This document shows, in pieces, positions 155-24,871 of a DNA stretch of 64,000 bases. The position numbers were made by a program, and so were the translations under genes. The stretch comes from Escherichia coli O157:H7. GTDB taxonomy: Bacteria; Pseudomonadota; Gammaproteobacteria; Enterobacterales; Enterobacteriaceae. Under the pieces are notes generated by a model, which saw only the letters and a program-made list of their open reading frames with translations, was not told the origin of the DNA and made no database searches. The stretch lies in NCBI RefSeq assembly GCF_013167455.1, contig NZ_CP038328.1, one strand, 5' to 3'. Within the stretch, counting starts at the first letter, position 1, and every line of letters begins with the position of its first letter.

Positions 155-334
155 ATGTTTGCAGGTTTACCTTCACTCACCCATGAACAGCAGCAAAAAG
201 CTGTCGAGCGGATCCAGGAACTGATGGCACAAGGGATGAGCAGCGGCCAGGCAATCGCGCTGGTGGCAGAAGAGCTGCGTGCCAACCACTCCGGCGAGCG
301 AATCGTGGCGCGTTTTGAGGATGAAGACGAGTAA
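155..334 (+). CDS. yoaH: UPF0181-family small protein YoaH (59 aa)
   Basis: ATG at 155, TAA at 332-334; translation [59 protein letters not shown] recognised as YoaH; below the 60-aa cutoff of the ORF track. Confidence 0.8.
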
Positions 335-390
335 CACACTAATCCGTATCGATTTCGTTATAGAAGCTGATGATTATTTGATTGTGAGAA

Positions 391-426
391 AAAGGACGCT
401 TTTTATATGTGATTAAAAGCGTCCTG
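391..426. terminator. Hairpin between convergent yoaH and yoaC (11-bp perfect stem aggacgctttt / aaaagcgtcct); likely bidirectional terminator
   Basis: Inverted repeat read directly; U-run follows on the minus-strand transcript. Confidence 0.5.
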
Positions 427-453
427 ACCCATTTATGCTGATATAAATTTAAC

Positions 454-753
454 TCAGACCAGTGCTTTTAGTTCTTCCTGCATATATGTTGAAAAGTACT
501 CAGGATTTTTAATCACAGAGCGTTCACCTGTCTCCATTTTTTTTGCCCATCCAACCATTTTTTCCGTGAACCCAGGGTTCCAGCCTTCCTGGTCAGCTCG
601 CGCCGTAATATCAGCGGCACTCGCGGGTACTCCCAGTTCTTTTAAATATTTAAAGATTCCCTTCGCCGTGCTTTCATTCATCGAACTTGGTGTTGGCGCT
701 GATACATCCATGGCACCAATGAAATCCAGGGCTTTATCTATTACAGCAGGCAT
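454..753 (-). CDS. yoaC: DUF1889 protein YoaC
   Basis: ORF 454..813; start taken at internal Met (MPAVIDKALDF...) to give 99 aa; sequence recognised. Confidence 0.7.
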   Translation of the reverse strand: MPAVIDKALDFIGAMDVSAPTPSSMNESTAKGIFKYLKELGVPASAADITARADQEGWNPGFTEKMVGWAKKMETGERSVIKNPEYFSTYMQEELKALV

Positions 754-1174
754 ATTCTTATCCTTAAAATTAACCATGTTATCGATAAGGCTATATATGA
801 CCTTAATTTGCATCTAATATCAAAGGGATTATAACGATATGGCACGAGTTAACCTGTTGATATTCAGGTGTTTTAAAGGTAGCAGCTCATGGTGTGTTAT
901 CCAGTAAGATGGAGAAAATTAACGGTCAGTCCGCACGCTATAACCAGATTGTTCAGCTAAGAAAGAAAACCAGAGTTGCTAATCAAAGGGCGAACACAAC
1001 GGCATGGTTATGTTTATTTATATAGTTAGTTTTATAGATAAAATTGAAATTATAAAAATAAATAATGAATTAGCAGAAGCATCAACAGTAATATCTTATT
1101 CTCTGGTCGATTTATGTATAACCGACCAGTATTATCGATAAATTATCGTCTGACTTATTTTGCTTCGATAAAGC

Positions 1175-1519
1175 TTACACCGCAGCCACAATCTTAATTT
1201 CAACTTTATACTTCGGGTTCATCAAACCCGCTTGTACCGTGCAGCGCACCGGCGCATGACCCGCGACAACCCAGGCATCCCACGCTTTATTCATCGCCGC
1301 GAAGTCGTTTTTATCGGCCAGGAAAATGGTGGCATCCAGAATGCTCGATTTATTGCTGCCCTGTTTTTCCAGCACGGCGTCAATCTGCGCCAGGGTGTTG
1401 GCGGTTTGCTCAAAGGCATCGGCGTCGAGGTTTTCCGGTACACCAGTGTAGTAGAGCGTGTTGTTGTGGATTACTACATCAGACCAGCGGGCTTCAGCAT
1501 CGATACGAACGATAGTCAT
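1175..1519 (-). CDS. yoaB: RidA/YjgF-family protein YoaB
   Basis: ORF 1175..1567; start at MTIVRIDAEARW gives 114 aa; RidA-like C-terminus (VRCTVQAGLMNPKYKVEIKIVAAV). Confidence 0.8.
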   Translation of the reverse strand: MTIVRIDAEARWSDVVIHNNTLYYTGVPENLDADAFEQTANTLAQIDAVLEKQGSNKSSILDATIFLADKNDFAAMNKAWDAWVVAGHAPVRCTVQAGLMNPKYKVEIKIVAAV

Positions 1520-1650: not shown

Positions 1651-3561
1651 GTGACGGACGATTTTGCACCAGACGGTCAGCTGGCGAAAGCGATACCAGG
1701 CTTTAAGCCGCGAGAACCACAGCGACAGATGGCGGTAGCCGTCACCCAGGCGATAGAAAAAGGCCAGCCGCTGGTGGTGGAAGCAGGAACCGGTACGGGC
1801 AAAACCTACGCTTACCTGGCCCCTGCGCTGCGGGCGAAAAAGAAAGTCATTATCTCGACCGGCTCAAAAGCGTTGCAGGATCAGCTCTATAGCCGCGATT
1901 TGCCGACGGTCTCAAAGGCGTTGAAATACACGGGCAACGTGGCGTTGCTGAAAGGGCGCTCAAACTACCTCTGCCTCGAACGTCTCGAACAGCAGGCGCT
2001 GGCGGGGGGCGATCTTCCGGTACAAATATTAAGCGATGTGATCCTGCTGCGCTCCTGGTCTAATCAAACAGTCGATGGTGATATCAGCACCTGCGTCAGC
2101 GTGGCGGAAGATTCGCAGGCGTGGCCGCTGGTCACCAGCACCAACGACAACTGTCTTGGCAGCGACTGCCCGATGTATAAAGATTGCTTTGTGGTCAAAG
2201 CACGTAAAAAAGCGATGGACGCCGATGTGGTGGTGGTAAACCATCATCTCTTTCTGGCGGATATGGTGGTTAAAGAGAGTGGATTTGGCGAGTTGATCCC
2301 GGAAGCGGACGTCATGATCTTCGACGAAGCCCACCAGCTACCGGACATTGCCAGCCAGTATTTTGGTCAGTCACTCTCCAGTCGACAACTGCTCGACCTG
2401 GCAAAAGACATCACCATCGCCTACCGCACCGAATTAAAAGACACCCAGCAGTTACAAAAGTGCGCTGATCGTCTTGCCCAGAGTGCGCAGGATTTTCGTC
2501 TGCAACTCGGTGAACCAGGTTATCGCGGTAACCTGCGTGAGCTGTTAGCTAATCCGCAAATTCAGCGGGCATTTTTACTGCTCGATGACACCCTGGAACT
2601 TTGTTATGACGTGGCGAAACTGTCACTGGGGCGTTCCGCCTTGCTGGATGCGGCATTTGAGCGCGCCACGTTGTATCGCACACGGCTGAAGCGGCTAAAA
2701 GAGATCAATCAGCCGGGCTACAGCTACTGGTACGAATGCACTTCGCGCCATTTTACTCTGGCTCTCACGCCGCTCAGCGTGGCGGATAAATTCAAAGAGT
2801 TAATGGCGCAAAAGCCCGGTAGCTGGATCTTCACCTCAGCAACGCTGTCGGTAAACGACGATCTGCATCATTTCACCTCGCGGCTTGGGATAGAACAGGC
2901 GGAGTCGTTGCTATTGCCAAGCCCGTTTGATTACAGCCGCCAGGCGTTACTCTGTGTGCCGCGCAACCTGCCGCAAACCAATCAACCGGGTTCCGCGCGG
3001 CAACTGGCGGCTATGCTGCGCCCGATCATCGAAGCTAACAACGGTCGCTGTTTTATGCTTTGTACCTCGCACGCCATGATGCGCGATCTGGCCGAGCAGT
3101 TCCGCGCTACCATGACGCTTCCCGTATTATTGCAGGGGGAAACCAGCAAAGGGCAACTGTTGCAGCAATTTGTCAGTGCCGGTAACGCGCTTCTTGTGGC
3201 AACCAGTAGTTTCTGGGAGGGGGTGGACGTGCGTGGCGATACATTGTCATTGGTGATTATCGACAAATTGCCGTTTACCTCGCCTGATGATCCATTGTTA
3301 AAAGCGCGCATGGAAGATTGCCGTTTGCGCGGTGGCGACCCGTTCGATGAAGTACAACTGCCGGATGCGGTGATTACTCTCAAGCAGGGAGTCGGGCGAC
3401 TGATTCGCGACGCCGACGATCGCGGGGTTTTGGTAATTTGTGACAATCGGCTGGTGATGCGTCCTTACGGCGCGACGTTTCTCGCCAGTCTGCCGCCCGC
3501 GCCACGCACCCGTGACATTGCCCGTGCGGTTCGTTTCCTTGCGATACCATCCTCCAGGTAA
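1651..3561 (+). CDS. yoaA: DinG-family ATP-dependent DNA helicase YoaA
   Basis: 636-aa ORF, GTG start; Walker A GTGTGKT, DEAH motif (FDEAHQL), Fe-S cysteines; recognised as YoaA. Confidence 0.85.
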   Translation: MTDDFAPDGQLAKAIPGFKPREPQRQMAVAVTQAIEKGQPLVVEAGTGTGKTYAYLAPALRAKKKVIISTGSKALQDQLYSRDLPTVSKALKYTGNVALLKGRSNYLCLERLEQQALAGGDLPVQILSDVILLRSWSNQTVDGDISTCVSVAEDSQAWPLVTSTNDNCLGSDCPMYKDCFVVKARKKAMDADVVVVNHHLFLADMVVKESGFGELIPEADVMIFDEAHQLPDIASQYFGQSLSSRQLLDLAKDITIAYRTELKDTQQLQKCADRLAQSAQDFRLQLGEPGYRGNLRELLANPQIQRAFLLLDDTLELCYDVAKLSLGRSALLDAAFERATLYRTRLKRLKEINQPGYSYWYECTSRHFTLALTPLSVADKFKELMAQKPGSWIFTSATLSVNDDLHHFTSRLGIEQAESLLLPSPFDYSRQALLCVPRNLPQTNQPGSARQLAAMLRPIIEANNGRCFMLCTSHAMMRDLAEQFRATMTLPVLLQGETSKGQLLQQFVSAGNALLVATSSFWEGVDVRGDTLSLVIIDKLPFTSPDDPLLKARMEDCRLRGGDPFDEVQLPDAVITLKQGVGRLIRDADDRGVLVICDNRLVMRPYGATFLASLPPAPRTRDIARAVRFLAIPSSR

Positions 3562-23249: not shown

Positions 23250-24593
23250 TTAAATATGATGAATAATCACTTTGTTGCCCCCCTCGCTTTTCGCTTCGCG
23301 TAAGGCTTTATCTGCTTCCGTCATGACAAGCGAGATATTACGCGTGTCACCCGTTGAAAAAACTGTGCCAATACTGATGGTCATTTGTTCAGGAACATCA
23401 TATCTGTTACTAAAGCCGGTCAGGAGTTCGACATTTTTACGCATACGTTCCGCAATGATTTTTGCCTGGGCACTATTGAGTTCGGTAAATAGCAAGCCAA
23501 ACACCTCACCCTCCAGTCGCGCTAAAATATCATCGGGGCGGATGCTTTGCTGGATAATATCGACAATTGAAACCAGCACTTTATCACCCACACGATGTCC
23601 CCATTGGGCATTGATGCGTTTGAACTGATTAATATCAACCAGCATGACACAGAAGTCCTTAACAACAGGTCGCGACAATAATGACTCTACGCTGTTGAAA
23701 AAGTAGCGCCGATTATAAATATTGGTCAGCACATCATGAACTGCCAGTTTGCTGGAGAGTTGCAGCTCCTGAAAAATGTTATAAATCAGAAAAGACACAA
23801 CAAACAGTTTACTGGAGACTTCAATCCCGCGACTGATATACCAGATGGTATAATTATACTCATCCAGAGTCAGTAGAAGTAAGTTGCAGCATAGCGATGC
23901 CAGACATAATAATGCTATTAACGGCCATAGTTCGCTGGCTAATCGTGTACGCATGATAATAAAGAACAGTAAAAATGCCCACAGACAAACCAATATTTTT
24001 GTATAGTTGATTCCCCAGGTCGCAGTATGATTGTCCGGACAGTAATCGACGACATACAAAGAATAGTCAGCGTTATAACTGCTCAGATTGTGTGCCAGAA
24101 GGGGAAAAACTAAAAAAGGGATCAGCGCCAGCAACAGAATGCCAGTTTTTTTCTTATTGTTGTCAAGGATGTTGTCTTTTCCATAACAAAAGAGCGCCAG
24201 CGAGGTTAAACAAATAAAACTGAGTTGGCGGAAAATATAGAAAATAGAAACATCATTCGACTTTGTCTGGATCAGTGTACTGCCGTTAATTGGTTTATGG
24301 ATAATTACAATGGTTTCAACTAAATAGATAAGGCCACTTAAAAATGCAAGGCTTAAAATGAGTGTTGGTAAAATTTGTTTGTTAGTGAAATATTTCATTA
24401 ACATGAAAAGAAAAATGACGGCGTTAAGGAAAAACAAAGCCACAACAACCATCAGGTAATTCATCTGTGGGATGAGTTTTACATTTGTGTTTTCGTTATA
24501 TAAGGTAGTAATGCAAAATAAAATTAACGTCAGCAATAAACTGAAAATAAAAAAGCTTTGAGCTTTTAATTTTTGTGTACCCATAGAAACCAT
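23250..24593 (-). CDS. cdgI: Degenerate GGDEF-domain membrane protein CdgI (YeaI)
   Basis: 447-aa ORF; multi-TM N-terminus; GGDEF signature replaced by EGEVF (RLEGEVFGLLF); very AT-rich coding sequence. Confidence 0.75.
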   Translation of the reverse strand: MVSMGTQKLKAQSFFIFSLLLTLILFCITTLYNENTNVKLIPQMNYLMVVVALFFLNAVIFLFMLMKYFTNKQILPTLILSLAFLSGLIYLVETIVIIHKPINGSTLIQTKSNDVSIFYIFRQLSFICLTSLALFCYGKDNILDNNKKKTGILLLALIPFLVFPLLAHNLSSYNADYSLYVVDYCPDNHTATWGINYTKILVCLWAFLLFFIIMRTRLASELWPLIALLCLASLCCNLLLLTLDEYNYTIWYISRGIEVSSKLFVVSFLIYNIFQELQLSSKLAVHDVLTNIYNRRYFFNSVESLLSRPVVKDFCVMLVDINQFKRINAQWGHRVGDKVLVSIVDIIQQSIRPDDILARLEGEVFGLLFTELNSAQAKIIAERMRKNVELLTGFSNRYDVPEQMTISIGTVFSTGDTRNISLVMTEADKALREAKSEGGNKVIIHHI

Positions 24594-24871
24594 AAAAAGG
24601 AGAGCAATGTGAGTGCTGGATTTTATTGATGGCAGAGATATATAGTTTTGACCAGGATCAATTTTCGTTAACGATAAAAAATATTTAAAGAATAACCCCA
24701 GGGAAATACGTGTTGACAGAATAATTTTTCCGAATGATTGTTTTCTGGAACTAAATTGTGTAAAGGTTATGCTGTCATATTTAAAGCGATTGTAAGCTAA
24801 TGTATGTAATAAATGAGATAACTTACAGTGAGCTAAAAATCAGCCAGGCGATAATGACCCGGCTGATAGTT

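Follow-up and report, generated by a model that had tools for sequence, protein, structure and literature searches.

The AT-rich gap between yoaB and yoaC of Escherichia coli O157:H7: probably a transcript end followed by a gene control region

The AT-rich block between yoaB and yoaC is probably ordinary non-coding DNA, made up of the end of the yoaB transcript and then the upstream control region of yoaC. It lies near one end of the 64-kb stretch of Escherichia coli O157:H7 DNA that was analysed, which is called the window below. As judged from the sequence, the block splits into three parts when read along the minus strand. The first 74 nt would be the yoaB 3' untranslated region (UTR), in which the transcript stops at a conserved hairpin. 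The next ~200 bp would be a fast-evolving, AT-rich distal regulatory spacer, which is occupied by the regulator YhaJ in vivo. The last ~130 bp would consist of an activator-dependent yoaC promoter, in which a TATAAT hexamer is combined with a poor -35, followed by a short leader with a strong RBS. The block is a feature of a known kind, is largely already described, and is on record as a YhaJ target.

Boundaries, composition and origin of the gap

The annotated genes around the block are yoaH (155-334, plus strand), yoaC (454..753, minus strand), yoaB (1175-1519, minus strand), and yoaA (1651-3561, plus strand). The gene order given in the preliminary description, that is, yoaB, the block, and then yoaC on the minus strand, is correct. 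The block is also AT-rich and free of long ORFs as described there; its left edge, which had been placed at 814, has to be corrected. The mechanical yoaC ORF of 119 aa, starting from 813, overstates the gene, for which RefSeq gives a DUF1889 protein of 99 aa in both K-12 and O157:H7. Three sister Escherichia lineages (L005, L006, and L008) have ACG in place of the upstream ATG at 813, and a 2-nt indel in L004 breaks the frame of the 119-aa ORF. Because yoaC is annotated from 753 and the ATG at 813 is not conserved, the gap between the two genes is 754-1174. This corresponds to 1893712-1894132 of K-12 NC_000913.3 (k = 1894886 - w, where k and w are the K-12 and window positions), the orientation of the window being opposite to the K-12 numbering. 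No feature is annotated between yoaB and yoaC in the RefSeq records of K-12 and O157:H7.

The absence of any ORF of 60 aa or more, also stated previously, was borne out: the longest ORFs within 814-1174 on either strand are 45, 43, 34, 27, 23, 23, and 22 aa. The G+C content is 32.5% over the gap (754-1174; 421 bp) versus 49.6% for the whole window. The stretch of about 1015..1075, which had been called almost pure A/T, coincides with the extreme AT core of the spacer at 1013..1072. With 8.3% G+C, this core is the lowest 60-mer within the window, and the 100-mer at 1003-1102 (19% G+C) is likewise the lowest of its size. The A/T string ttatagataaaattgaaattataaaaataaataatg quoted in that description is at 1032-1067. 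AT richness of this degree is far more than chance would produce in this genome. The sole other place in the window at or below 25% G+C per 100 nt is 24471-24598, and the surrounding 24294-24800 includes the lowest 400-nt G+C of the window (29.5%).

The segment 700-1250 is 100% identical to that of O157:H7 strain PV15-279, and the region was found in 5,424 of the 5,426 complete E. coli genomes, generally in a single copy and with 97-100% identity. For comparison beyond the species, the gap was aligned among O157:H7, K-12, CFT073, and five other Escherichia lineages (eight sequences in total). In this alignment, the spacer (~890-1100) is poorly conserved between Escherichia species and contains many indels. 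It is absent from Escherichia sp. MOD1-EC7003, in which the gap is 271 bp long and both the hairpin and the proximal promoter are kept.

The origin of the gap was examined by comparing relatives of yoaC, one genome per species, and then relatives of yoaB with their contigs. Salmonella enterica, Klebsiella quasipneumoniae, and Enterobacter asburiae share the gene order yoaA-yoaB-yoaH-pabB-nudL with Escherichia, and in these three species yoaB and yoaH are convergent and 0-11 bp apart. Among the genera compared, only Escherichia species have 840 extra bases between these two genes (335..1174). The extra bases contain the AT-rich block, yoaC, and a terminator, and their G+C content is 37.1% versus 49.6% for the window. 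Homologues of yoaC in Buttiauxella, Citrobacter, and Lelliottia are found in other contexts, with no yoaA, yoaB, or yoaH nearby. On the basis of this synteny, the block therefore makes up the upstream half of an acquired insertion that is small and contains a single gene. The low-G+C segment would have entered the Escherichia lineage between yoaB and yoaH, bringing yoaC along. A phage origin and a plasmid origin were considered and rejected: no phage match was found for the region, and the four "plasmid" matches were mislabelled chromosomes, leaving no similarity to a true plasmid.

YoaC is 87-97% identical across Escherichia species (L004-L008) versus 96-100% for YoaA, YoaB, and YoaH. The acquired yoaC is thus changing more rapidly than the genes around it, and within the yoaC unit the coding sequence is less well conserved than the promoter and leader. 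The terminator within the insertion (393-425, both strands) is a canonical bidirectional intrinsic terminator that serves both of these convergent genes, yoaC and yoaH. Its 11-bp stem (GGACGCUUUUU / AAAAAGCGUCC) is followed by UUUUUCUC on the yoaC strand and preceded by an A-run, and its fold has a z value of -4.4.

The yoaB transcript end and the yoaC promoter

In the SMRT-Cappable-seq operon list, the b1809 transcript extends over 1893335..1893785 of NC_000913.3 in the forward direction and is marked "novelTTS". Its end at 1893785 corresponds to position 1101 of the window, 2 nt beyond the stem of a hairpin on the minus strand (1103..1129). This hairpin consists of a 10-bp stem, CUGGUCGGUU / AAUCGACCAG, and a 7-nt loop. 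The minimum free energy fold of 1095-1177 on the minus strand was -19.6 kcal/mol with a z value of -4.1, far better than those of shuffled sequences. Among the eight Escherichia sequences, the pairing is kept in 95% of the cells, compared with at most 43% when the partners were slid, and two pairs show compensatory changes (GC to AU and UA to CG). One G-U pair exists on the minus (yoaB) strand only. In addition, a conserved element, ATAATTTATCGA, is located between the stop codon of yoaB and the hairpin. The conserved hairpin and the mapped RNA 3' end at 1101 therefore indicate that these 74 nt (1101..1174) are the yoaB 3' UTR with its 3'-end hairpin.

No U-tract follows the stem in E. coli, which has AGAAUAAG at this position; UUU(U) follows the hairpin in L005, L006, and L008 only. 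Because the U-tract is missing, a Rho-dependent stop or trimming by an exonuclease seems to be more likely for the yoaB 3' end than classical intrinsic termination. This would also place the hairpin close to the non-canonical 3'-end hairpins of Rho-terminated or exonuclease-trimmed mRNAs, with which it shares a stable and conserved stem-loop, an RNA end 2 nt past the stem, and the lack of a U-tract. It differs from them in that the UUU(U) of the sister Escherichia lineages resembles an ordinary intrinsic terminator, and the role of Rho is here a presumed one. It should be mentioned that a terminator scan of the region found no terminator and missed both hairpins: that of yoaB because it is without a U-tract, and that at 393-425 because its loop is 11 nt long.

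At the other end of the gap, about 130 bp next to yoaC are conserved in Escherichia, with the arrangement CTGCTACCTTTAAAAYRCCTGAATGTCAAYAGG.TAAC ... GTTATAATCCCTTTGATATT ... GGTTAATTTTAAGGA.AAGAAT-ATG. This part contains a perfect -10 hexamer, TATAAT, on the minus strand (828..833), which is present in seven of the eight Escherichia sequences and is replaced by GATAAT in the eighth. The -35 is poor, with two of six matches. The spacing between the -10 and CTTTGA, the geometry from the -10 to the start, and the RBS recur in Citrobacter and Lelliottia. These features point to a proximal, activator-dependent yoaC promoter with a predicted start near 821. The predicted yoaC 5' leader would then be 754..821 (minus strand), with the RBS AAGGA at 761-765. 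This leader shows about 94% identity between E. coli and E. albertii, and GGTTAATTTTAAGGA(T/A)AAGA is conserved across four genera.

A switch in the leader RNA, formed by anti-SD and anti-anti-SD elements (UUAAGG ... CCUUA ... UAAGGA), seemed to be possible in E. coli. It was rejected because no consensus structure or covariation was observed among 13 sequences from three genera (-1.7 kcal/mol). The leader also carries a perfect 10-bp palindrome, TTATCGATAA, at 779-788. The same palindrome is found a second time in the gap beside the yoaB hairpin (1132-1141), and related TCGATAA(A/G)GCT copies are at 782-792 and 1165-1175. The twofold occurrence of the palindrome may be due to chance in AT-rich DNA.

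Regarding the gene itself, yoaC expression in O157:H7 increases as the cells enter stationary phase. Deletion of yoaC in E. coli K-12 leads to a marked sensitivity to boric acid, the MIC being 40-45 mM versus 100 mM.

YhaJ, YeiE and H-NS at the spacer

yoaC was listed among the chromosomal sites bound by the LysR regulator YhaJ and was termed a "known regulated gene" (Connolly 2019). YhaJ ChIP-seq peaks are present in the gap in both EHEC and UPEC CFT073, in two replicates each (Connolly 2019, SI Tables S3 and S4). In EHEC, the peak-shape scores are 10.4 and 21.1, with P values of 8e-26 and 2e-99 (Connolly 2019). Only five YhaJ sites are common to EHEC and UPEC, and yoaC is in both tables (Connolly 2019). 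The published centres together cover 1095..1118: those of CFT073 (2045445 and 2045463) correspond to 1113 and 1095 of the window, and those of EHEC are estimated at ~1110-1118 from the motif-to-centre and gene distances in the table. The peak centres are thus situated on the yoaB hairpin, 340-360 bp from the ATG of yoaC, and the peak windows do not extend as far as the proximal promoter. Such a distance is too far for classical LysR activation.

For yoaC, the EHEC table and the UPEC table give the same predicted YhaJ box, TTATAGATAAAATTGA (Connolly 2019). Its sole exact match in the window is at 1032..1047 on the plus strand, where it forms the start of the A/T string mentioned above. For its evaluation, a symmetric matrix was built from the 15 other YhaJ sites in the tables of Connolly 2019, which themselves score 10.4-17.5 bits. 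The published box scores 3.8 bits, contains the TTGA half-site only, and is 66 bp off the peak centre. Furthermore, the YhaJ consensus TCAA-N5-TTGA has no match within 700-1260, where the best scores are 3.8-5.0 bits versus at least 10.4 bits for the training sites. Matches of at least 4 bits occur 185 times in the 64 kb, that is, about once per 350 bp. The published box is at the level of chance, contrary to the expectation that it would be confirmed.

Another candidate for a LysR-type site, immediately ahead of the proximal promoter, is the T-N11-A box TTAAAACACCTGAAT(A/G) on the minus strand (862..877), which is kept in seven of the eight Escherichia sequences. The K-12 form of this box is identical at 13 of 16 positions to the yhaJ autoregulatory site TCAAAATTCCTGAATG. 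Its score with the YhaJ matrix is only 1.7 bits, and it lies outside the ChIP peak windows.

In the accessible part of the supplementary differential-expression text, yoaC was not found among the genes changed in yhaJ mutants, so that YhaJ binding may be without effect under those conditions. A second LysR regulator, YeiE, was located by ChIP-exo upstream of RNA polymerase at yoaC, which it activates (Gao 2018). In view of the YhaJ and YeiE reports, the block has to be counted among the transcription-factor targets already described and not as an unexplored interval. The suggestion that it is a promoter region is supported by its place upstream of yoaC, by the occupancy by YhaJ, by the report on YeiE, and by the conserved 130 bp with the TATAAT hexamer.

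When compared with the YhaJ-regulated regions of yqjF, yhhW, ybiJ, and yhaJ, the block is similar in its in vivo occupancy in EHEC and UPEC with a target gene downstream, in its poor -35, and in its T-N11-A-like sequences. It differs from them in having no good TCAA-N5-TTGA box and in the position of the peak, which is ~350 bp from the start codon and on the terminator of the upstream gene. In addition, a YhaJ-dependent change in yoaC expression is not documented in the accessible part of the published tables.

The homologues of yoaC in Lelliottia (L014 and L015) have, 67-79 bp ahead of the ATG, the sequence ACAATCTCTTTGA (2422-2434), whose score of 12.9 bits with the YhaJ matrix is as good as those of the reported sites. 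The E. coli homologue of this site, ATAATCCCTTTGA (820-832), reaches 5.1 bits and overlaps the -10. Control of the YhaJ type may thus have existed in yoaC homologues before the Escherichia insertion, and at one time it may have been exerted from a proximal site. Elsewhere in the window, predicted YhaJ 13-mers such as TCAAAGGCGTTGA score 12.5-13.7 bits at 1912-1924 (inside yoaA), 51199, 34619, and 21142; none of them is in the accessible part of the published EHEC peak list.

H-NS had also been proposed to bind the block. The high-affinity motif of H-NS is tCGATAAATT (Lang et al. 2007). An exact match to this motif, TCGATAAATT, is located beside the yoaB hairpin on the plus strand (1135..1144) and is the sole exact match on both strands of the 64 kb. 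It lies within the palindrome CGATAAATTATCG and within the 10-mer palindrome TTATCGATAA, and it is retained in CFT073 and K-12. The region shows the features of H-NS targets, namely, a high AT content over several hundred bp, a nucleation motif, and lineage-specific DNA. Because of its extreme AT content, foreign origin, and exact nucleation motif, binding of H-NS to the block seems to be likely and is considered plausible. Among the accessible papers and supplements, no mention of the yoaB/yoaC locus was found in the text on H-NS.

The block resembles the H-NS-silenced proU and bgl regions (Lang et al. 2007) in the exact tCGATAAATT and in the flanking AT-rich DNA, which could support spreading. 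It also resembles H-NS-silenced acquired DNA, being a lineage-specific insertion far more AT-rich than the genome. The differences from proU and bgl are the small size of the segment (0.84 kb, one gene), an AT core that is not predicted to be curved, and silencing that is here a matter of prediction. The idea that the block is curved was not supported for this core: in a trajectory calculated with the wedge model, 900-1180 is at the window median. Only 781-900, which covers the proximal promoter, is predicted to be bent (0.4th percentile in the same model).

In the mechanism considered here, H-NS would coat the foreign AT-rich spacer and keep yoaC expression low under standard conditions. YhaJ, together with YeiE nearer the promoter, would relieve or override this silencing. 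A more specific version, in which the locus is a counter-silencing switch, is tentative and rather unlikely. According to it, H-NS nucleates at TCGATAAATT and spreads over the yoaC islet, and YhaJ activates by displacing or remodelling H-NS and not by contacting RNA polymerase. YhaJ would then bind to the non-canonical TTAT(C/A)GATAAA repeats, which are 100 bp apart and ~350 bp upstream; these belong to a 15-nt direct repeat, AGTnTTATnGATAAA, whose copies at 1028-1042 and 1128-1142 bracket the centre of the YhaJ peak. If true, YhaJ would act in a way that is uncommon among LysR-type regulators.

Alternative readings and implications

The spacer might instead be neutral, that is, junk from the insertion or a scar, on which YhaJ binds opportunistically, with yoaC being run from the conserved 130 bp only. 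No other part of the gap is as poorly conserved as the spacer, and MOD1-EC7003 lacks it but retains the hairpin and the proximal promoter. The lack of a convincing YhaJ box, the absence of yoaC from the yhaJ-dependent genes in the accessible part of the supplementary tables, and the statement of the authors that none of the UPEC ChIP targets changed in expression (Connolly 2019) are in line with this reading. However, few YhaJ peaks in EHEC are as strong as this one, and it belongs to the only five that EHEC and UPEC have in common. Other species have retained the TTATCGATAAATT element and parts of the spacer, and hardly any E. coli genome is without the block. A neutral spacer is therefore regarded as unlikely. 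A distal promoter was also considered, with a second perfect TATAAT on the yoaC strand (1049..1054, minus strand), a start near 1042, and a leader of ~290 nt. In such an arrangement, the canonical position of LysR recognition, here about -55 to -70, would be taken by the peak centres (1095-1118), the published box (1032-1047) would sit at the start site, and YhaJ could act as a classical LysR activator. Against this reading, the hexamer is specific to E. coli, being TATTGA or TATTGT in the sister species, the -35 has only three of six matches, and the leader stretch of 890-1040 is poorly conserved. Furthermore, the SMRT-Cappable-seq list has no forward-strand transcript start within 1893335-1901934. 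Transcription of yoaC from this distal promoter is thus improbable.

The preliminary description had also allowed for a hidden small RNA or small protein, and neither suggestion was supported. A small RNA or antisense transcript on the plus strand would start from the promoter-like TTTATA-16-TAAAAT (1017-1044) and extend to the hairpin (1103-1129), where it would end. Within 300-1800, no second sigma-70-like match was found, and the hairpin, as an inverted repeat, also forms on the plus strand, with T-runs on both sides in the sister species. A single match is, however, fewer than the 3.2 expected from shuffled sequences. The plus-strand stem is only 7 bp long, because the G-U pair becomes C-A, and its fold is no better than those of shuffled sequences (z = -0.7). 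The candidate region is not conserved between species, and an Rfam scan with E up to 10 gave only chance-level matches to eukaryotic and Gram-positive families. Over K-12 1893700-1894099, the SMRT-Cappable-seq list contains no transcript end other than that of yoaB, a list from which short RNAs may escape. Such an RNA is highly improbable. Even less probable, to the point of being nearly dismissed, is a small protein encoded by the 45-aa ORF at 1004-1141 or the 43-aa ORF at 894-1025, both on the plus strand. These ORFs are present in O157:H7 and K-12, but both are truncated in CFT073 and absent from other Escherichia species. Conservation of the small ORFs in the gap fails already among strains of E. 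coli, and none of them has a Pfam match. The accessible part of the supplements to a ribosome-profiling survey of small intergenic genes in O157:H7 Sakai does not name yoaB, yoaC, ECs2518, or ECs2519; as these supplements are possibly indexed by coordinates, this is weak evidence. Nothing points to an RNA gene or a protein gene in the block, with the reservation that these negative results have gaps, since a short RNA or an unexpressed gene would be missed.

The preferred reading, a yoaB transcript end followed by the control region of yoaC, reveals no new kind of element, and its importance beyond annotation is slight. What is added here comprises the corrected boundaries, the yoaB hairpin with its covariation, the origin by insertion, and, as a fourth point, the exact H-NS motif along with the finding that the published YhaJ box is weak. 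The gene concerned, yoaC, is an uncharacterised DUF1889 gene and one of the few YhaJ targets common to different E. coli pathotypes. The Escherichia-specific insertion and the weak, off-centre YhaJ box are useful for dissecting the regulation of yoaC.
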